From an uncultured bacterium (GTDB lineage Bacteria; Fidelibacterota; Marinisomatia; Marinisomatales; UBA1611): a DNA stretch of 64,000 nt. The DNA lies in contig CALSPG010000005.1 of assembly GCA_943788175.1 (NCBI GenBank), positions 320,001 to 384,000 on the forward strand, read 5' to 3'. Shown here piece after piece: positions 12,286-22,374 of this stretch. Under the pieces are notes generated by a model. That model worked only from the letters and a program-made list of their open reading frames with translations. It was not told the DNA's origin and ran no database searches. Every line of letters starts with the position of its first letter. The first letter of the stretch is position 1. Position numbers and translations under genes: made by a program.

Positions 12286-14206
12286 TGGATTACACCCATA
12301 TCTTTGAAAGAGACTTCAAATAGAAGTTAATAAGCGAAGTGGGATTCAATGGCAAGGTAGATGTCCATTACCAAGCCACGAAGATAGAAAAGCATCCTTT
12401 TCTTGGAATATAGATAACGGACTATGGAAATGTCACGGGTGCTTTGAATCGGGGAATGCTTATCAATTAGCAGAAATATTAGGTATAGCAAACCCATCCC
12501 AATATATAGAAAAAGAAACGGGGGGATATAGGAACAACCCCCCTCCAATACAGAAAGTTAATGTAATGAGTAGTGAAGAACTCGATGCACTTAAAAAAAA
12601 GTATCACTCAAATCTAACTGAACAAGATACCACATTTACCAATCCATATACAATACACGGAAGACGGGATGATGGGAATTTAGTTTTCTTTCTACCCGAT
12701 GCAATTAAGCATCACAAGTCTCAACCATATTGGGAGGGCAACAATAAGAAGTGTCAAATATTTGGTAGTGAATATCTTGCTGAGATAGATGCGAATGATA
12801 CTCTATACATATTCGAGGGAGAAAAAGAAGTATGTTACTCTCCATACAAGGGAATCAGTTTCACGGCTGGTGCTGGAAATGTTCCCGAAGACTTATCTCA
12901 ATTATACGCCTATAAAGATATTTGCATCATTCCCGATAATGATGATGCTGGATATAAGGGTGCTGATAAATGGGCAAAGGTCTGTTCAAGTAAATGGGGT
13001 GCATCCGTAAGGATTGCACAATGGGATGAGACACTCCCAAAAGGTTACGATGTGTATGATGATTATGTCCGTTCAACAAATGGAGATGAAGATTACATAT
13101 TTGATGAAACCGATAAGGCAATCAGCAAAGCAATCCCCTTTAAAGAAAATAACCACAAAACTGAAATTGGAGGTTTCAATACAATGGCAATAAACAACTA
13201 CATACAAACATATCAAGATGAAGAAGTAAGTCATATCATAGATGGATTATTAGTTAAAGGAGGTGTGACAATCCTTGCTGGTTCTGATGGAGTTGGTAAG
13301 TCTTGGTTAGGTTTACAAATGGGATTCTGTATCTCAAATGGAAATGAGTTCTTAGGTTGGGAAACAAAGAAGATGCCCGTTCTGCTTATTCAATTTGAAT
13401 TAGGTACGGCTCAACTGAAAGATAGATTACAGATACTATCTAAATCCTATGATATGAATACTGATTTCAATGTGGTAGACCTATCAGATGAAGACCTCAT
13501 CTTTACAGATGCTTGGGATAAGATAGAACAGACTATTGATAATCAATCTTTTACGGATGGAGTTATCATTGTAGATAATCTATATGCAAGTACTGATAAG
13601 GATGTATCTCAAAATCACGAACTCAAACCTATCTTAAAAAAGATAAGAAAGTTGTGTGTGGAGTATGACAATGCTTTTGTCTTGATTGCTCATCACAATA
13701 AGAACGAAAAAGATGATGAGCCGATCCTGACAAAAAAACTGATAACGGGAGGGAAGACACTTACAAATTTCCCCAACAATGTTATTCAAGTTGGCAGTAG
13801 CAGTTTAGGTAATGACATCTTTAGAGGCAAGATTACAAAGATAAGAGATAAAGGTAGTGATTTAATAAACATTCCTTTTATCCTCAACTTTGACCAAGAC
13901 ACTTGTGTTTTTTCAAGGGGTGTAATCATTGTATCTGAGATACTTCATTGCCAACCCATTAAAAAGAGATGGGAATATGAATTGCTTATAGACTTCCTTG
14001 CCTATCAATCTAATGAGGCGTTTACTCGTTCAAGGTTATGGCAATTCCTATCTACAAAAGACGGATGGGAAAAGACTCCATCAAATCAAACTAAGGTTAC
14101 AAGGTTTCTAAGTAGAATGAAAACTTGGGGATTCATTATAGAGCGTGAATACAATCTGTATGAATTAAGCCTTGAAGATATAAGGAGGCTGGAAGAAGAA
14201 AGATGA
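12285..14206 (+). CDS. Primase-helicase (CHC2 Zn finger + Toprim + RecA/AAA_25-like helicase), with one indel near 12310
   Basis: Frame upstream of 12566 reads CPLPSHED...WKCHGC; Toprim EGEKE and DNDDAG; Walker A GSDGVGKS, Walker B IIVDN; ATG overlaps the xis stop (TAATG). Confidence 0.85.
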
Positions 14207-14225
14207 TTTACGGGGGGTGAATATA

Positions 14226-14294
14226 GTGTTTAAGTGTTCATCTTAGGTGCTTATGTATTCCCCTCTCAAATGAACAGATAAACAGACTTAACCA
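14226..14294. repeat. Inverted iteron-like repeats (candidate replication origin)
   Basis: GTGTTTAAGTGTTCATC facing ATGAACAGATAAACAG just after the helicase stop; same motif at 10806-10825. Confidence 0.55.
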
Positions 14295-14698
14295 TACATA
14301 GCAAGAGGATTTAAAGATAATGGAATATAAAGTAATGGACTTTCAAAAATATACAGACTACTTAGGTGATAGGTGGGATGATACTATTGAAATGGGAAAG
14401 TTTGATACCTATGAAATGGCATTGGAATCGAATGAGTATCATTGAGCAAGACCTTGCAAACGGGTAAGAATGGATTGCCTAAAGATAGTACTTTAGAACT
14501 AATTCAATTCGTAACAGAGTCACATCATACGGGTGGTAATAAGTCTTAATGAAGATGGCTGGATTGTGGTACTACACAAACCCGATATTGTTACAGATGT
14601 TACAAATGTTACAGATGGCTCAGAAGTAGGTACTCAAGCACACGCTGAACAGGAGGTAAACTAGGGCTATCTCTCACTCAGAACAGAGAGACATCGAC

Positions 14699-15058
14699 TT
14701 GTCAAAACTTGACATTGAAGATGATATTTTCCCCCCTAAAAAAGGTGCAGATGAGGATAGTAACTCCCCCAATTTTGGCAGAGGTCAGCATCCTAATTCA
14801 AAGAAGAATCTGAAGCCATTATGAGAAAGGTGTTAGTGGTAATCCATCGGGTAAACCAAAAAAGGTAGCACAATTAAAAGAGGTCTTAGATTGGTGGGGT
14901 AGGCTTAACTGAATATGATAATTGGTCTTGGGATAAATACACCAATAGAGCAAATGGTAGTCAAAGGTATATGGAAAAGAGCAACCTCATGGTAATAGAC
15001 AAGACTTAGATATTTGCTATCACTTGGATTACTTGATTCAGACAAGTTTAAAGACTAA
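14699..15058 (+). pseudogene. Frameshifted DUF5681/terminase-small-subunit-like gene
   Basis: Reads HPNSKKNLKP/YEKGVSGNPSGKPKK across a 1-nt shift, matching the NLKPFKKGQSGNPxGRP motif. Confidence 0.6.
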
Positions 15059-15200
15059 TTTAGGAACGCTTAAATCAACATGTTAAATATACCTAAATAC
15101 AATTCCCCCTATGAGATGTGGTCAGCAGTAATGCCCCAAACGATTTCAACATGTTATCGTAAGCCATCTTTGGGGGGATGTAGGTAATAGGAGTCAGCAT

Positions 15201-16316
15201 ATGGCTACATATATAAAACAAAGAAAACGTCAGTACTCATCCCGTATTCAATGGAGAGACTGAGAATGGTAATAAGAGAGAACGAAAAATACCTCTTAAA
15301 ACTTCTTCTAAATCTGTTGCAGTAGTCAGAAACAATGAAGTAACGAAAGTTGAAGATACTATTATCGATGGAGATAATTGGTCTTTTGCTTGGATGAATG
15401 ATGATGGTAAAAGTTAAACTAATTAGATTATCTATTAGCGAGGCTTATGAAGAATATAGGATTGTCCAAAACATAGATGGAGTGAGAGCGTCTACGCTCG
15501 ATCGAGTTGATAACTCTATGAAGACACTATATAAAGTCTTTGGAGAGAACTATCCAATAGCATCATTAACATACTCGCATATAGAACAATTCAAAGAGTA
15601 TTGGCACGGAACACATCAACCAACTACAATGAATATTAATCTATCAAAGATTAAAGCGTTTCATAATTGGTGTCTTAAAAAAAGATATACTATAAAAGAT
15701 GTAGAGTTTAAGATGGTTAAGGAAGATGAAAAGCCTCCACAATATCTAACAGATGCTGAGTTTAAAAGCATAATGAAATGTGATATAATAGATGACCATT
15801 TCAAGAAAGCATTTGTATTCTATTTGTATACGGGTTGTAGAAAAACAGAACCATTTATTGCAGACTTAAATGGTAATTGGCTTACAATCAAATCAACAGA
15901 TGCTAAGTCTCACAGAACTCGTGATATTGAATTAAATGAAGTAACTAAGGGCATAGTTCAAGATATGAGAGATAGGTATCATTACTATATGGATGAATAT
16001 GCACAGAAACCAAGAAATGTGATTATGAACTATGGTAAGCAGTTCAAAAAGGCTTGTAGATACTTAGGTATCAAGGGCAAGACCTTACATTCATTGAGAC
16101 ATACTTATGCAGTTAGACGCTGGGCAATCACGGGAGACATTAAGATGGTATCTCAAGAGATTGGTCATAGTCTCAGTAGTGATGACAGAGAAGTATGCTA
16201 AGTTCAATCTTAGAAAGTTAAGAGATGATTTCCCCTCATTAAAAGAGCGTATCAATCTTAGACTTACTCCACCAAGTGAAGACTCATATTTTACTACGCT
16301 TTTAAATGCTATTTAG
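15201..16316 (+). CDS. Tyrosine integrase, three apparent 1-nt frameshifts (~15260, ~15410, ~16170)
   Basis: RBS AGGAG, ATG 15201; TGCRKTE, HSLRHTYA, IGHS/SVVMTEKY with the catalytic Tyr in the next frame; adjacent to attR. Confidence 0.9.
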
Positions 16317-16415: not shown

Positions 16416-16650
16416 AGAGCGTTGCCCTTACAAGGCAGATGTCGGGAGTTCGAATCTCTCAACGCCCACTCCTCAGAAACCCTCGTTTATTGACGGGGGT
16501 TTTTGTTTTTCTACAAGTCTGTCAAAGTCGTCATTCCTTATCATTGTATGACATTTATAATAGGAACTTTGGAGGCTACCAAGCCCTAATTCAATTACTT
16601 ATTTCAACCAAAGTAGGGGGGCATACCCCGTTTGATAGGTCGGTAGGTAT
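16416..16650 (+). repeat. Right copy (attR: 3' part of tRNA-Val plus ~180 bp)
   Basis: Matches 6450-6688; lacks the tRNA 5' end. Confidence 0.93.
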
Positions 16651-16714
16651 CTTTGATTTAAAATTTTATGTTTTTATTGAAAAGAACTATCGGAAGAAAT
16701 AACTATAAATGTAA

Positions 16715-16759
16715 ATATTTTGAGGTTCAAACTTTGAATAAATTCAAACCTCAAAATAT
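16715..16759. terminator. Hairpin downstream of the cold-shock gene
   Basis: 13-bp inverted repeat ATATTTTGAGGTT / AACCTCAAAATAT. Confidence 0.55.
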
Positions 16760-16789
16760 CATTTTTAATAAAAAAGTTACTAGAGTAGT

Positions 16790-17002
16790 CTATTTAGGTA
16801 CTACGTTTGTTGCGCAAGGACCTTTATCAGAAGAACCTTCTTCATAATCAACTTCCTGCCCGTCTCTTAAGGTTTTGTACCCATCCATTTGAATCTCATT
16901 CATATGAACAAATAAGTCTTTATCACCATCTTTTGGTGCTATAAATCCAAATCCTTTTTTATCATTGAACCATTTTACGGTTCCTTCTTTTACATCACTC
17001 AT
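16790..17002 (-). CDS. cspA: Cold-shock protein
   Basis: GTVKWFN, KGFGFI (RNP1), LFVH (RNP2). Confidence 0.95.
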
Positions 17003-17159
17003 TTTATTATTTTCCTACTTTTGTTTATTTATTCAATTATTACTTATTTAATTGAATACTGCAATTTAATACTGTTATTACATAAATAAATTTAATTATT
17101 ATTTAAGTCTATAAAAAAATATATTGCATAGTTTAATCACATTATCACAATTTTTGATA

Positions 17160-17483
17160 ATGAAAAAATCGATAAATAAATTCATTTTAACTGGGATAGC
17201 TCTTTTATTTTTTAGCTCGATTTTTCATTTAGATCATACTCCGGCGCACGAGCATCAAAATGGATACAACATATGCAATATAGGATGTAAGGATATTGAG
17301 CATCATTCTTATTCTCATCAATGTGAAAAGTGTTTAAGCAAAACCCAAAGATATGTAAGTGTAAATCTTTTTGATTTATCACTTCATAACAACTCAACAT
17401 CATTTGACAATCCTAAAGACATTACTTTTTCTAAATTCATAAATTTTAATTCAAATAAAAGAGCCCCACCCATTATCCTTTAG
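17160..17483 (+). CDS. His/Cys-rich leader protein ending in RAPP (DUF2946/CruR-like arrest peptide), copy A
   Basis: N-terminal hydrophobic segment, HEH-GYNIC-x3-C-x4-HH-x5-CEKC, C-terminal KRAPPIIL. Confidence 0.8.
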   Translation: MKKSINKFILTGIALLFFSSIFHLDHTPAHEHQNGYNICNIGCKDIEHHSYSHQCEKCLSKTQRYVSVNLFDLSLHNNSTSFDNPKDITFSKFINFNSNKRAPPIIL

Positions 17484-17673
17484 ATTTTATTAAAGGAGCA
17501 ACAGTTTCAGTAAAAATACATTTTGTATGCAATGAGTGCATGCCAGTTTCGTATTTGTCGTAAACATCTATCATCAATTTTTCAGTAATGATTATAATTG
17601 AATTATGATTGAGAAATTTGATGCTCCTAAATCTTTGTTCAAAAATATCTTTTGAAAATCATAAAGGAAACAA

Positions 17674-18087
17674 ATGATGTTAAATTCAATAAATATTTCG
17701 ATAAAAAATATTAAAGTAGATAGTCTTGGCGCTTTGGTAAGCGGCTTATGCATGTTGCATTGTCTTGCAACGCCAATCTTTTTTATTGCTTCAGCTTGTT
17801 CAGCAGCATGTTGTAACTTTGCTCCAACTTGGTGGCAATCATTAGATTATATTTTTCTAGTTATTTCTCTTTTTGCTGTAATCCAAGCATCTAGAAATTC
17901 AAATAGTTCATTGGTTCCTAGGGGGCTACTAGCTAGTTGGTTAGGGTTAGGTTTTTTTATATTGAACGCTAAGTTTGGTTGGATTAGCGTTCATCAGAAT
18001 ATTAAGTTTATTCCTGCGTTTCTTCTTATTGGATTTCATCTATACAATATGAAGTACTGTCAATGTGAGAGCAATGAATGTTGCTAA
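17674..18087 (+). CDS. MerC-domain membrane protein
   Basis: DSLGALVSGLCMLHCLATP MerC signature, 4 hydrophobic segments, Cys-rich tail. Confidence 0.82.
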   Translation: MMLNSINISIKNIKVDSLGALVSGLCMLHCLATPIFFIASACSAACCNFAPTWWQSLDYIFLVISLFAVIQASRNSNSSLVPRGLLASWLGLGFFILNAKFGWISVHQNIKFIPAFLLIGFHLYNMKYCQCESNECC

Positions 18088-18121
18088 ATTATTTAATGTT
18101 TTTTTAATGAGAGGATGAAGA

Positions 18122-18370
18122 ATGAAAGAAAATGAATTTCCACTTCTAAAGATTACAAATATTGATTGGGATCCAGATCATGAAGAATTTGAAAAATTAC
18201 CCAAAAAATTAGAGCTTAAATGGGATAAAAAAAATTGGACCATCGATGATGTTTCAAACTGGTTAAGTCTTGAATTTGACTGGGTTTTTAACAGTCTTAA
18301 TATTAATCAAGTTGGAATTTGGGAGAATGGTGGTTGTAGTTGCTGCGCTGGCGGATGTAGTTGCTGCTAA
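18122..18370 (+). CDS. Small acidic protein with a tandem GGCSCC tail
   Basis: RBS GAGG; ends GGCSCCAGGCSCC. Confidence 0.7.
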   Translation: MKENEFPLLKITNIDWDPDHEEFEKLPKKLELKWDKKNWTIDDVSNWLSLEFDWVFNSLNINQVGIWENGGCSCCAGGCSCC

Positions 18371-18374
18371 ATTT

Positions 18375-20603
18375 TTAAATACGAAACCTGTAATTAATAT
18401 TGAATCCTAGCCCGGGTTCAGGCATTATCATTTTAATTTTAGATAAATGATTATAATAGGTTTCATTTAATATATTAGATACTTGAAATATTAATTGATG
18501 CATGCTATTATTTTTACTAAAAGTATACGTACAGTTATAATTAAAAAGTTTGTATCCATTTGTTGGCGTTTCAAACTCACCAAGTTTATCTTGATTAGAA
18601 ACTAACAAAAATTCAAAAGTGTTATTTAAAAACAGAATATTTTTTTCTATTTGAAATCGAATCAAATCTGGAGGAATGTATGCCAGTGACATATCGTTCT
18701 GTAAATCTAAACCTCGACATATTGAGGCATTTCCTAATAGGTTAAAATATTTTAGATTAATCTTAAAATTTGGCTCAAACCCATAAATCAAGGTTTCAAG
18801 GCCAAATATTTTATATTTATATAACCAACCTGAAGACCCACTACCCCACTCAATCCAATCGGCCCCAGTTTCGTAACCATCTCCCATTTTTTGAAAAATG
18901 TGAAAATTAGAGCTATAGTTTATATAACTGGTAAGATTGAATTCATTTTTATCATTAAAAAAAGAAAAAGTATTTTCAAATCCTAATGTATTCTCCTGAT
19001 CAAGCTTTGGTTCGCCAATCTCATACGAATAGCTTCCTAGATGGGGACCATCAGAATATAGATCTTCGATTTTTGGAGCGCGGCTTGTGTACAGAATATG
19101 ATTGTATATTGAATAATTTTTTCTCTTATTTAGTGCTGATATACCAAAAGAAAACAATATAAAATCACGTTTTTTTACATCTTCGGGTTCAATATTAGAA
19201 AAGAAAGTATCTTCAACACTAGGGTTGATTGATCGGTATTCAATCCTTCCAGAAAATTGCAATTTAAGGTTATCATACTTTCTATTATTTATGCCAAATA
19301 CAGCTAATTTTGTTTCATTGGAATTTGGAGTCCATATAAAACCGCGTGTAAGGTAGTCTCTATTTTGATAGTTAATACCAATTTTTAATGTTTCTCCGCT
19401 CAGTAAAGCATTCAAATAAATAATATTTTGTCTCAAATCAACAGATGCATAATTAGCATCCTTAACAAATTCCTTGTGCCCATATCTAATGTATCCTTGT
19501 TCAATATCTAAAATATTAAATGAAAAAAGTTTAATATCGCTGTGATACATTAATTTTTGGCTTTGATTTTTTAGTTCTAAGTCAACTCCATTAATATGTC
19601 CCTCTGGACTTCCTGGGATTCCATAATCCATTGAAAAATCTTTTATTTGAAGGGAAGTGAAATTTTTGGCACCAAACTTTGTTACAGCTATTGAAAGGTC
19701 GTTTTTTATTAATGCTGTATTTTTTAGAGAACCCAAGGGAGAAGATTGATCATTAGATTTTCTATTAGTTATTGACGTAAAAAGTTGATAGGTGTTTAAT
19801 GGAATACTAATATTTGTTCCTAAAAGCTTTGACTGGTTCGAGCTCTCATGTCCAAAAAATACATTATATAAAGCTCGTTCTATCTTTTTTTGACTATTCA
19901 TTGGAGATAGTATGTTAATTATACCAGCAATAGTGTTTGACCCATAGGCTAAGGTCTCTGGTCCTCGCATTACTTCTATACCTTCTGCAGAAGAAATTTC
20001 CATGCTCACCGCGTGGTCGGCAGTAGTGTTAGATAAATCACCAAGTTCAAAACCATCAGAGGTAATTAGGAATCTATCCCCTGAGTATCCTCTTAGAATA
20101 GGTCTTTGGGTTGCTTGCCCGGATGATCTCATCGCAACACCAGACTCCCCAGTAAGAGTGGTCGCAAGGTCGCTATTAATGTTTTTTTTCAATCTACTAC
20201 CAATCATCGATATTGAAGATGGGGCTTTATTCTTATTGCTCTCTTCATGTGAATGGACTGTTACTCCGCTCATTTGGATTGTTTTAGGAGTCAAAAAAAC
20301 TTTGTATTTATTCTTTATATTTTTGTGACTTACAAATAAGGTTGTATCCTTGAACCCAATCATCGAAATCTTTATTTCATTTTTCTTTAAATTATCTAAA
20401 GAGAGTGAAAAAGTTCCTAATTCACTGGAGACTGTACCAAGATCACTATCTACAATATAAACATTAGCACCAGATATAGGTTTCAGATTACTATTGTCAA
20501 ATATTACTCCTTTAATTGATGCTACTTCTTGAGCAGAAAGTGAGTTGATAAAAAATAGAGCTATATATAGAGGTAGATAACGCACGAAAAGAAGGAGTAT
20601 CAT
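18375..20603 (-). CDS. TonB-dependent receptor, probably for metal (Zn/Ni/Co) uptake
   Basis: Signal peptide, carboxypeptidase-regulatory-like N-domain, plug RPILRG..DHAV..RGP..YGS, GPHL loop, NILNETYYNHLS, terminal aromatic beta-strand. Confidence 0.9.
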   Translation of the reverse strand: MILLLFVRYLPLYIALFFINSLSAQEVASIKGVIFDNSNLKPISGANVYIVDSDLGTVSSELGTFSLSLDNLKKNEIKISMIGFKDTTLFVSHKNIKNKYKVFLTPKTIQMSGVTVHSHEESNKNKAPSSISMIGSRLKKNINSDLATTLTGESGVAMRSSGQATQRPILRGYSGDRFLITSDGFELGDLSNTTADHAVSMEISSAEGIEVMRGPETLAYGSNTIAGIINILSPMNSQKKIERALYNVFFGHESSNQSKLLGTNISIPLNTYQLFTSITNRKSNDQSSPLGSLKNTALIKNDLSIAVTKFGAKNFTSLQIKDFSMDYGIPGSPEGHINGVDLELKNQSQKLMYHSDIKLFSFNILDIEQGYIRYGHKEFVKDANYASVDLRQNIIYLNALLSGETLKIGINYQNRDYLTRGFIWTPNSNETKLAVFGINNRKYDNLKLQFSGRIEYRSINPSVEDTFFSNIEPEDVKKRDFILFSFGISALNKRKNYSIYNHILYTSRAPKIEDLYSDGPHLGSYSYEIGEPKLDQENTLGFENTFSFFNDKNEFNLTSYINYSSNFHIFQKMGDGYETGADWIEWGSGSSGWLYKYKIFGLETLIYGFEPNFKINLKYFNLLGNASICRGLDLQNDMSLAYIPPDLIRFQIEKNILFLNNTFEFLLVSNQDKLGEFETPTNGYKLFNYNCTYTFSKNNSMHQLIFQVSNILNETYYNHLSKIKMIMPEPGLGFNINYRFRI

Positions 20604-20614
20604 AAAAAAACTAA

Positions 20615-20644
20615 AAGCTGCCCAGACATTGATCTAGGCAGCTT
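20615..20644 (-). terminator. Intercistronic terminator-like hairpin just before the receptor start
   Basis: Minus strand GCTGCCTAGA-TCAATG-TCTGGGCAGC followed by T-runs. Confidence 0.65.
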
Positions 20645-20662
20645 CTTGTCTAATTACTACGA

Positions 20663-21188
20663 TTAATTAACAGTTACTGTTACGTTATTTGTAGAGGTGT
20701 AGTCTGCATGACCATCGTGCATTAATTGGATTTGAAAGCTAGTGCTTCCTGAGCTCACCCCAATAATGTGTAAAGCAGCTCCATGTTCTTCTTCATGATC
20801 ATGATCGTGGCTCTTCTTCTTCATGTTCTACTTCGACTATAGCAATACTTGCATCAGAACCAGATACCTCGAGTTCGCCTTCTTCGTGTCCTTCTTCCTC
20901 TTCTTCTTCCTCATCATGTTCAATTTCATTTCCATCATGATCAAGAAAATGGACAGATAATTCAAGAGTGTCGCCGACACTTAAAGCGACAGAACCAGTT
21001 ACGGCGCCTTCAAACTCTCTATAAACTTCAGTTCCGCTTTCATTCTCTAAAATGAAACCATCTGCATCGGTATGTCCGTCATCGTTGTTATCATGGTCGT
21101 CGTCTTCACAACCAGTTATAAATAACATGGCACATGTAAGTGAAAAAATAGTATACGCTTTTAATGAACGTAAGAATAGTGTTTGCAT
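20663..21188 (-). CDS. His/Glu-rich lipoprotein, 1-nt frameshift near 20811
   Basis: Lipobox ITGC; acidic/His tracts; shifted frame continues HDHDHEEEHG...LMHDGHADY...VTVN* to 20663. Confidence 0.8.
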
Positions 21189-21254
21189 AAAATGCTCCTT
21201 TAAAATTTTAAAATAGAATTGTACTAATTTATTAGTACGAGTGTAATACTGTTT

Positions 21255-21602
21255 TTAGTTAAAGGATGAGGGGGGTGCCCTTGAGGGGATATTTAATTGG
21301 TTTAAAAGATTTTTGAAAACATGCTCATCAAAATAATACGAATTTTTTGTTTTTACATAGGTATTGATTTTATATGTGTCATTATATATTTTCTGGTTAT
21401 TCTGATTTCTTGTACACTTATCGCAATCAGCCTTTAAAACATGGTGATCTGATGAGTTACATTCAGGGTTACAGATACTGTATCCTTCTTCTTTTGTGTG
21501 GTCATGCTCAGAAATATGAAGACTACCAGAAAGGAGTAGAAATGATAACGTAATTTGGCAAAGTCCTTGCAAGATGTTTTTTATGTTATTTTTCTTATGC
21601 AT
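21255..21602 (-). CDS. His/Cys-rich leader protein ending in RAPP, copy B
   Basis: Hydrophobic N-terminus, HDH-GYSIC-x3-C-x4-HH-x5-CDKC, C-terminal SRAPPSSFN. Confidence 0.8.
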   Translation of the reverse strand: MHKKNNIKNILQGLCQITLSFLLLSGSLHISEHDHTKEEGYSICNPECNSSDHHVLKADCDKCTRNQNNQKIYNDTYKINTYVKTKNSYYFDEHVFKNLLNQLNIPSRAPPSSFN

Positions 21603-21690
21603 AAAAAGAGAGAACTAATTTAGTAATTAATACAAATAGAGTTACTATTCAAATTTTCACATTATAAAAATTAATTGCATTGTTTTAATA

Positions 21691-21715
21691 ATTGATATTG
21701 AGACTAAATATCAAT
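21691..21715. promoter_or_regulatory. Fur-family box
   Basis: ATTGATATT-N7-AATATCAAT; the central 19-mer matches GATAATGATAATCATTATC at 14/19. Confidence 0.6.
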
Positions 21716-21858
21716 ATGTGTATATTCACCTATTGGTTATTAAAATACAAAAATAAAAACAAATGGGTTCTGTTCTAAATTATAAGTAATACTTAAAATT
21801 GGTTCCAAAACTATGAATGGGACCCGTTTTGTTTTTTTAAATATTTAAAGGATAAAAA

Positions 21859-22374
21859 ATGGAAAAAATAGGTTTATTTTGGGGTAGTAATACTGGGAAT
21901 CAAGAAGAAGCGACAAACTTTCTTGCTGATTATTTAAAGTCATAACGCTGTCAGTTAGATTTGTATAATATTGTTGATACACCACCTTCAAAAATGTTGG
22001 AATATAAAAAACTATTAGTAGGTTGTCCGACTTGGCACATTGGGGAACTGCAAGACGATTGGGATGCAATATACGAAGAGTATAAAAAATTAGATTTTTC
22101 AAATGTTAAAGCTGCTTTTTTTGGATGCGGAGATTAAGTAGGCTACAGCGATAATTTCTTAGATGCTATCGGATTACTCGCGAAACCTTTTATTGGTAAT
22201 GGTGGAACATTAATTGGTCGTTGGCCAACAGAGGGTTATGAATTTGAGCATTCCTTAGCTTTAGATGGCGATGATTTTCTTGGTCTTGGATTGGATAATG
22301 ATAATGAAGAAGAATTAACAGAAGAGCGTTTAATTATTTGGGCTGAATTAATTAGAGATGAATTCGAATCATAG
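21859..22374 (+). pseudogene. fldA: Long-chain flavodoxin with two in-frame TAA stops
   Basis: GLFWGSNTGN, GCPTWHIGELQDDW, FFGCGD*VGYSDNFLDA, GLGLD; stops at 21943 and 22135. Confidence 0.9.

Follow-up and report, generated by a model that had tools for sequence, protein, structure and literature searches.

Candidate arrest-peptide leaders with a Cys/His sensor precede metal-uptake genes in an uncultured Marinimicrobia bacterium and are probably zinc-responsive

Two small open reading frames (ORFs), ORF A (17160-17483, + strand) and ORF B (21255-21602, - strand), were analysed in a 64,000-nucleotide stretch of an uncultured Marinimicrobia bacterium (contig CALSPG010000005.1, positions 320,001 to 384,000), and this whole stretch is referred to below as the window. 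These two ORFs, together with a third paralog that lies on a different contig of the genome, are likely to be cis-acting leaders of metal-uptake units, encoding arrest peptides of the CruR/CutF type that are probably zinc-responsive. The family to which they belong is unannotated and is of a known general kind, that of CruR and CutF, here in a different form; its distinctive traits are a probable link to zinc, a Cys4/His sensor, an RPPP form of the arrest motif, a covarying complement of the next gene's Shine-Dalgarno (SD) sequence (anti-SD), and threefold modular use in one genome.

ORF A encodes 107 amino acids (aa) from an ATG at 17160 to the end ...NKRAPPIIL-stop and matches the family profile with an hmmsearch E-value of 1.3e-35. 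Its order of elements is a Lys-rich start, a 15-residue hydrophobic segment, HLDHTPAHEH, and GYNIC-x3-C-x4-HH-x5-CEKC. The hydrophobic segment, a predicted signal-anchor at about residues 8-22 (17181-17225) preceded by Lys, is followed by a putative Cys/His sensor from H23 to C58 (17226-17333), reading HLDHTPAHEHQNGYNIC-NIG-C-KDIE-HH-SYSHQ-CEKC, by a spacer of 42 residues (17334-17459), and by the arrest-type motif RAPP (17460-17471), after which only the three codons for IIL precede TAG. ORF B, also a family member, encodes 115 aa and ends in ...PSRAPPSSFN-stop; its sensor (H29 to C63, 21414-21518) reads HISEHDHTKEEGYSIC-NPE-C-NSSD-HH-VLKAD-CDKC and lies 44 residues from RAPP (21270-21281), which is followed by the four codons for SSFN and TAA. 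The initial annotation had described the two frames as paralogs with a shared signal or transmembrane segment, a common order of Cys and His residues, an unconserved spacer of 42 or 44 residues, and RAPP three to four codons before the stop. Both frames are present at those positions, each of these elements was found in the sequence, and the two proteins share 29% identity (BLASTP, E 3e-7). The third paralog (G000:C2:3125-3445, - strand) encodes 106 aa and ends in HSRPPPNLS, the RPPP form. Among 15,540 stop-to-stop ORFs of at least 40 aa in the 2.27-Mb genome, R[APGS]PP occurs within the last 12 residues of four, three of which are these homologous paralogs; permuted control motifs gave 6, 2 and 1 matches, and the R[APGS]PP count by itself is thus not unusual. 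Chance ORFs as the identity of the leaders were ruled out by family conservation and codon-level evidence.

A family profile and a survey of downstream genes, both proposed in the initial annotation as checks, were carried out and yielded a conserved family with metal-uptake neighbours throughout. A full pass of phmmer over 1.84 billion representative proteins (E<=1e-3) returned 58 matches, two of them repeat-protein false positives; R[APGS]PP with 3-5 residues after it closes 47 of the 56 others, and the remaining 9 look truncated or frameshifted. Profile searching of a 5.8-billion-protein collection added 87 cluster representatives, all lacking both a Pfam domain and an informative name, and Pfam and NCBIfam scans of 44 family members gave scattered chance matches only, the leader being recognised by neither. 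Of 201 sampled genomes of the host's Marinimicrobia order, 74 contain the family, as do 49 of 301 genomes sampled across the whole phylum, two of these 49 lying outside the host order; a single-protein scan for related loci found 7 loci.

In an alignment of 44 sequences, C58, R101, P103 and P104 are invariant, C39, H48 and C55 are at least 90% conserved (of the CxxC pair, C55 is present in 43 and C58 in all 44), and H23, C43, H49 and H53 are each present in 33-39 sequences. The sensor, with four Cys and three or four His, is richer than that of DUF2946 proteins, as had been noted initially. Terminal motifs were counted in 203 distinct leader sequences, many of which are close relatives and hence not independent; 186 carry one (RAPP 88, RPPP 81, RGPP 8, RSPP 5, KSPP 2, HPPP 1, KGPP 1), with exactly three residues after it in 143 of the 186. 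The spacer from CxxC to the Arg is 42 residues long in 93 sequences, 43 in 9 and 44 in 72, which accounts for all 174 sequences with CxxC, and its length is thus fixed across the family while its sequence is unconserved. Every one of the six Arg codons and four Pro codons is used to encode RxPP (51 distinct 12-mers in 64 loci); therefore the peptide itself, and not only the RNA, is under selection. At the N terminus, the family has a 15-residue hydrophobic window of mean hydropathy 2.1 with K/R before it, which fits a predicted N-in signal-anchor, and in AlphaFold2 (AF2) models of the leader a helix of residues 2-24 is the only confidently modelled part (predicted local distance difference test score, pLDDT, >90).

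For the survey of downstream genes, the flanks of 60 further places were taken, ORFs were called and the downstream proteins were clustered; 65 of the 67 leader copies had a readable downstream gene. In all 65 loci, the gene that comes next is from a single metal-uptake gene set. The first gene on the same strand encodes a 170-aa His-rich lipoprotein in 45 of them, with a TonB receptor after the lipoprotein in 40; it encodes an ATP-binding cassette (ABC) ATPase in 8, a TonB receptor in 6, a 340-aa protein without a Pfam match in 4 (L078, L080, L083, L086), and a MerC protein in 2, namely this genome and a congener. The 340-aa protein is followed in its four loci by ZnuA (PF01297, E 5e-58), ABC-3, a DsrE-like protein and an ABC ATPase. 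A long operon in L037, L046, L054 and L061 is made up of the leader, lipoprotein, receptor, ABC ATPase, a DUF3526/ABC-2 permease, a second permease and MerC, and other relatives (L040, L056, L066, L070) have the leader followed by ABC genes, MerC and a protein with a Cys-rich tail. Genes for SecA, SecDF or YidC, which leaders of the ApdA/ApdP and RQH type precede, were found downstream in none of the 65 loci; metal-uptake genes stood there instead.

The genome of the window has the uptake gene set in three units with one leader copy each. Downstream of ORF A lie the gene of a MerC-family membrane protein (17674-18087, +; PF03203, E 2.5e-17) and that of an 82-aa protein with the Cys-rich C-terminal tail GGCSCCAGGCSCC (18122-18370, +), which adjoins MerC in relatives too (cluster c6, 9 members). 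ORF B is followed by a His/Asp/Glu-rich lipoprotein gene (20663-21188, -; cluster c1) and by the gene of a ZnuD-like TonB-dependent receptor (18375-20603, -) with Plug and CarbopepD_reg_2 domains. Gene order and Pfam matches thus agree with the initial description of the leaders as heading MerC/Cys-tail genes and a His-rich lipoprotein/TonB receptor pair in convergent operons, the two units meeting tail to tail with ends at 18370 and 18375. The third paralog (L002, G000:C2:1-3445) stands before an ABC ATPase, a 467-aa ORF and another ORF of 285 aa that the contig end cuts off, the latter two permease-like; the ortholog of the 467-aa ORF in L037 carries DUF3526 and ABC-2. In locus L035 (G171:C20:18429-28258), a single operon has two leaders, the first ahead of the lipoprotein gene and the other between the lipoprotein and TonB receptor genes. 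Since the leader is copied ahead of each sub-operon and doubled in L035, it behaves as a cis-acting module.

A candidate read-out was found in the intergenic RNA. As listed for the intergenic regions, the last codons of the leader with its stop are the reverse complement of the SD region of the next gene. The common form of tail and SD is CUCCUUUA(G) versus UAAAGGAG, and clade-specific complements change in step (ATCCTTTTG/CAAAAGGAT, ATATCCTTA/TAAGGATAT, CTCAGTTAA/TTAACTGAG and ACTCCT/AGGAGT); one clade has AGGGGAG paired with the very codons for Ala-Pro-Pro. A second feature, a short hairpin 15-25 nucleotides (nt) after the leader stop, shows compensatory changes. At ORF B, the last codons (AUCCUUUAAC, 21258-21267, -) are paired with the SD region of the lipoprotein gene (UUAAAGGAG, 21195-21203, -) in both the minimum free energy (MFE) and the centroid fold, the MFE fold containing this helix at -16.9 kcal/mol (z -2.53), and the intergenic inner hairpin GUACUAAU-AA-AUUAGUAC (21221-21238, -) has an equivalent that covaries across the family. 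At ORF A, the last codons, the stop and the five following bases (UAUCCUUUAGAUUUU, 17475-17488, +) pair in the MFE fold with the SD region of the MerC-like gene (AAAAUCAUAAAGGA, 17655-17668, +; z -2.09). The intergenic distance is 190 nt at ORF A and 66 nt at ORF B, most family loci having 60-90 nt.

Duplex energies were computed between the 15-nt leader tail and the 22 nt before the next start codon. The mean was -6.6 kcal/mol for cognate and -4.9 kcal/mol for non-cognate pairs, none of 10,000 permutations being as low, and the controls gave -2.9 kcal/mol (tail versus a mid-intergenic window) and -3.5 kcal/mol (upstream leader window). A structure named by hand was assessed on a 48-sequence alignment, in which 76.5% of cells were paired versus 42-52% with slid partners, the covariation score was 0.276 versus 0.09-0.14 with slid partners, and both-side changes occurred in 13 of 15 pairs, none of 500 shuffles being as high. 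The hand-named structure and the duplex energies were used because RNAalifold predicted no consensus structure from the full 48-sequence intergenic alignment.

The footprint of a stalled ribosome was modelled by forcing it single-stranded, and SD accessibility rose by more than 0.2 in 19 of 59 loci; moving the footprint 21 nt upstream had this effect in 2 of 59. The modelled probability that the SD is unpaired was 0.21 for free RNA at ORF A, 0.51 with the stalled footprint and 0.21 with the upstream-shifted one, and at ORF B it rose from 0.03 to 0.22 with the stalled footprint. In this model, a ribosome stalled at RxPP would cover the anti-SD tail. By analogy, if the stall is positioned as in CruR and three codons and a stop follow, the distance of the anti-SD from the P site would be about 9-17 nt, which puts it within the mRNA channel of the ribosome or at its edge, and its place within the stalled footprint would explain the fixed number of codons after RxPP. 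SD unmasking is the likely read-out. An Rfam scan of 16500-22300 returned nothing at E<=0.1 and nothing near a gathering score, and a conserved operator was not seen among 58 upstream regions inspected by eye. An 8-7-8 inverted repeat upstream of ORF B was considered as an operator and was rejected, as it is not kept in the sister genome. A second AAAGGAGCA occurs at 17490-17499 (+), directly after the ORF A stop, with no ORF behind it; it is the same as the ribosome-binding site of the lipoprotein gene, is also kept in the congener (L047), and is paired in the MFE fold with UGCUCC downstream. It looks like a relic of an ancestral leader-lipoprotein junction.

Built on the observed family, its motif spacing, its synteny and its covarying RNA complementarity, the proposed mechanism would run as follows. 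The signal-anchor would insert the peptide N-in, so that the Cys4/His3-4 site ends up on the periplasmic side, and translation would arrest at R-x-P-P, 3-4 codons short of the stop, the P and A sites being occupied by the two Pro codons. The arrested ribosome would cover the last codons and the stop, the SD of the next gene would be free, and the uptake genes would be translated. At arrest, the spacer of 42-44 residues would have brought CxxC just outside the tunnel or translocon. When metal is available, most likely Zn2+, the sensor would fold around it, pull the chain and release the arrest, whereupon the ribosome would terminate, the anti-SD:SD helix re-form, and uptake be shut down. We infer the stall, the identity of the metal and the direction of its effect, relieving rather than strengthening the stall, and likewise both the pulling of the chain by metal-driven folding and the placement of CxxC by the spacer at the exit tunnel or translocon. 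Because importers are encoded downstream, the logic of CruR was adopted, in which available metal relieves the arrest and the genes are turned off. The most specific form of the proposal, a zinc-sensing force switch in which a Cys4/His mini-domain folds around Zn2+ just as the length-calibrated tether has brought it beyond the ribosome or translocon, its pull releases the RxPP arrest, and the switch possibly replaces a Zur-type repressor, is advanced only tentatively, as a possibility that we would not yet favour.

In PMC9426467, DUF2946 proteins are defined by a CXXC and a RAPP motif with 45 residues between them, a distance that varies by no more than 1-2 residues in over 2000 proteins, by a RAPP that ends three residues short of the C terminus, and by an export signal, which more than 95% possess. 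Their prototype is CruR (Bp2923) of Bordetella pertussis, in which RAPP and CXXC are required for regulation and copper relieves the arrest (PMC9426467); CruR has been reported to arrest, with a toeprint that places Pro-Pro in the P and A sites (PMC12992588). The comparison with CruR and CutF made in the initial annotation is apt, the leader family having the architecture of DUF2946: CXXC, RAPP, constant spacing and an export signal. Like CruR, the leaders combine an N-terminal export signal and CxxC with a fixed-length spacer (45 in CruR, 42-44 here) and RAPP located three residues ahead of the C terminus, they head operons with a TonB-dependent transporter, and the logic proposed for them, in which metal relieves arrest and turns uptake off, is that of CruR. 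They differ in that half of the family has RPPP rather than RAPP, and in their downstream genes, which are those of a ZnuD-like receptor, His-rich lipoprotein, ABC/DUF3526, MerC or ZnuA-type proteins, whereas CruR precedes CrtA and PepSY_TM; further differences are the likely read-out, SD unmasking and not Rho, and the host phylum, Marinimicrobia.

Homology to DUF2946 was sought with PF11162, which matched none of 44 family members at E<=1, nothing in the window genome at E<=10, and none of 301 genomes of the phylum at E<=1e-3, while control genomes did match. The spacing is constant, yet 1-3 residues shorter than that of CruR, a Ralstonia DUF2946 gene having 45. Alignment of the family with DUF2946 by hhalign gave a probability of 1% with only CxxC aligned, the DUF2946 side being a shallow alignment of five Ralstonia sequences, and a language-model search gave, as a weak lead, a cluster with PF11162 on 36% of its members at rank 30 (score 0.95). 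The leader family may be a very distant relative of DUF2946 or a convergent form.

CutF of Rhodobacter capsulatus is likewise small and exported, carries a Cys motif and has a proline-rich stall at its C terminus; it acts only in cis, and its stall melts a stem-loop that shields the next ribosome-binding site (PMC9973294; bioRxiv 10.1101/2025.02.05.636593), to which the pairing in the leader family is analogous. A structure shielding the ribosome-binding site within reach of a stalled ribosome was found at both window loci and in the main locus classes and was not seen in the 8 ABC-class loci. Among the 5,334 'CutF-like' proteins listed in PMC9973294, Bacteroidota account for 19%, and TonB-like genes rank second in frequency among the neighbours; its main text makes no mention of zinc. 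In the terms of the filters given there, the leaders are shorter than 150 aa and have PP in the last 15 residues, a predicted signal and a same-strand neighbour within less than 1000 nt. The difference is that CutF induces a detoxifying oxidase at high copper, the metal strengthening the stall, whereas the leader family precedes uptake genes. An EMBO J 2025 survey (PMC12992588) describes RAPP/RGPP upstream ORFs ahead of TonB receptors across Gram-negative bacteria, and the word 'zinc' does not occur in its available text. With these upstream ORFs and with ApdA/ApdP, the leaders share a RAPP-type motif near the C terminus, a localisation signal and a gene upstream of a regulated gene; ApdA and ApdP reportedly monitor Sec/YidC and have no metal motif. 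The Cys4/His sensor, fixed spacer, anti-SD tail and zinc set the leader family apart from the survey, in whose available text these are not mentioned. The supplementary lists of PMC9973294 and PMC12992588 could contain members of the family. A full-text search for a link between an arrest peptide and zinc uptake found none, and among the papers listed by a full-text search for DUF2946 plus copper there was likewise none with such a link.

As to the metal, the initial annotation had proposed zinc, nickel or cobalt, and of these zinc is favoured by the ZnuD-like receptor, the ZnuA/ABC-3 loci and the His/Asp/Glu-rich loops of the lipoprotein, which makes the family probably zinc-responsive as judged from its gene neighbourhoods. 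Against solved structures, the best match of the window receptor is ZnuD (4rdr, E 4.3e-27) and the next best has an E-value of 2e-6. An unlikely alternative keeps the same arrest-peptide architecture and changes either the metal, to copper or to Co, Ni or Cd, or the logic, with metal strengthening the stall as proposed for CutF. The Cys-rich sites, MerC and the Cys-tail protein suit soft metals as well, and the ZnuA-family protein is ambiguous between Mn and Zn; the receptor, however, is far nearer to ZnuD than to any other solved receptor. PepSY_TM-type genes follow more than 75% of the genes for CrtA, the CruR-linked copper receptor (PMC12914433), and no PepSY_TM-type gene was seen among the downstream proteins scanned here. 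For uptake genes, induction by excess metal would be counter-productive, which speaks against the opposite logic.

Several points weigh against the reading of the leaders as zinc-responsive arrest peptides. Stalling, metal response and read-out are all deduced from sequence. The case for zinc is indirect: the only experimentally tested relatives, CruR (PMC9426467) and CutF (PMC9973294), sense copper, and the ZnuA-type binding protein in the leader loci of relatives matched Mn and Zn binders equally well. The sensor was modelled by AF2 without a confident fold (pLDDT about 50). CruR works without an export signal according to PMC9973294, so the translocon-exit geometry may not matter. RPPP, the form of about half the family, is a putative arrest motif: 'RPPP' is absent from the text of PMC12992588 and occurs once in that of PMC10987492, only as a search motif among Escherichia coli and Bacillus subtilis sequences, most of which did not stall. 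In the RNA analysis, the modelled gain in accessibility is modest (0.23 to 0.38 for the main locus class), RNAalifold predicted no consensus structure as stated above, the permutation and shuffle controls ignore relatedness, and the tested structure was derived from one aligned sequence. Pro codons are inherently anti-SD-like, and some pairing is favoured by default. Eight ABC-class leaders, including the third paralog, are without clear tail:SD pairing (mean -3.0 kcal/mol); at the third paralog no such pairing was found and the locus fold has z -1.13. This class may therefore be read out differently.

The last point bears on a second and rather improbable alternative, in which the stall controls transcription, the parked ribosome blocking Rho or a terminating intergenic hairpin. 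CruR itself acts via Rho-dependent termination in its intergenic region (PMC9426467), at every locus the covarying hairpin, 15-25 nt past the stop, leads into a stretch rich in A and U, and the ABC-class leaders have intergenic regions of 130-150 nt without SD pairing. Directly after the hairpin, however, there is no U run and the terminator scan called no terminator there, the intergenic regions are mostly just 60-90 nt, and the covariation of the tail:SD complementarity is unneeded by a pure termination model. Finally, it is very improbable that the leaders are simply small exported metal-binding proteins, such as uptake chaperones, with a proline tail that functions in the mature protein and no stall: their Cys/His motif is strongly conserved, they are encoded in operons with metal transporters and a dual role is possible, but the spacer is constrained in length and not in sequence, R-x-P-P is invariant and stands a constant 3-5 codons ahead of the stop, the tail shows complementarity with the SD of the next gene, and duplication of the leader before each split sub-operon, in L035 between the lipoprotein and receptor genes, fits a cis module better.

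Further features of the window were noted around the two units. A terminator-like hairpin of 15 pairs with a T run, called by the terminator scan between the lipoprotein and receptor genes (20613-20646, -), may set the ratio of the lipoprotein to the TonB receptor product. In this assembly the lipoprotein gene is split into frames of 129 and 53 aa by gaps of 8 bases and 3 bases relative to the 176-aa ortholog of the congener, inside a GAA/GAT/CAT low-complexity repeat; possible causes of the split are an error of assembly, variation between strains and a genuine frameshift. The intact ortholog was modelled by AF2 as an Ig-like sandwich (pLDDT 80.5) with His/Asp/Glu-rich loops, for which Foldseek returned generic Ig-like matches only, such as SbsC and filamin. 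Upstream of ORF A, 12566-16201 (+) encodes an AAA_25 (primase/helicase-like) protein and a phage-integrase-SAM-like protein, near a cold-shock gene (16790-17002, -). In run X15 of an RNA library, one contig of 4,244 bases spans both convergent units and may therefore be DNA; run X16 gave contig pieces over 18787-21750 only, and such contigs give no transcript ends, with DNA carry-over being possible. Many leader loci lie within a few kb of contig ends in metagenome-assembled genomes, and leader paralogs or strain variation may break assemblies near them.

Transcription factors such as Zur, Fur and CueR are the usual explanation of how bacteria balance their metals, and CruR and CutF have made clear that a nascent peptide can sense copper. 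If the leader family senses zinc, co-translational metal sensing would be a general strategy and not a copper curiosity, and these leaders would be the first nascent-chain metal sensors for zinc, and for any metal other than copper, in the form of a portable module copied before each sub-operon of a zinc regulon. The design is compact, with sensor, fixed-length tether, arrest motif and an anti-SD inside the stalled footprint, and is directly testable in vitro. About 200 unannotated small genes are flagged by the family, which also joins a ZnuD-like receptor with a His-rich lipoprotein, an ABC/DUF3526 transporter and a MerC-like protein in what is probably one uptake pathway of SAR406/Marinimicrobia, an abundant, uncultured ocean lineage whose habitat is poor in trace metals.

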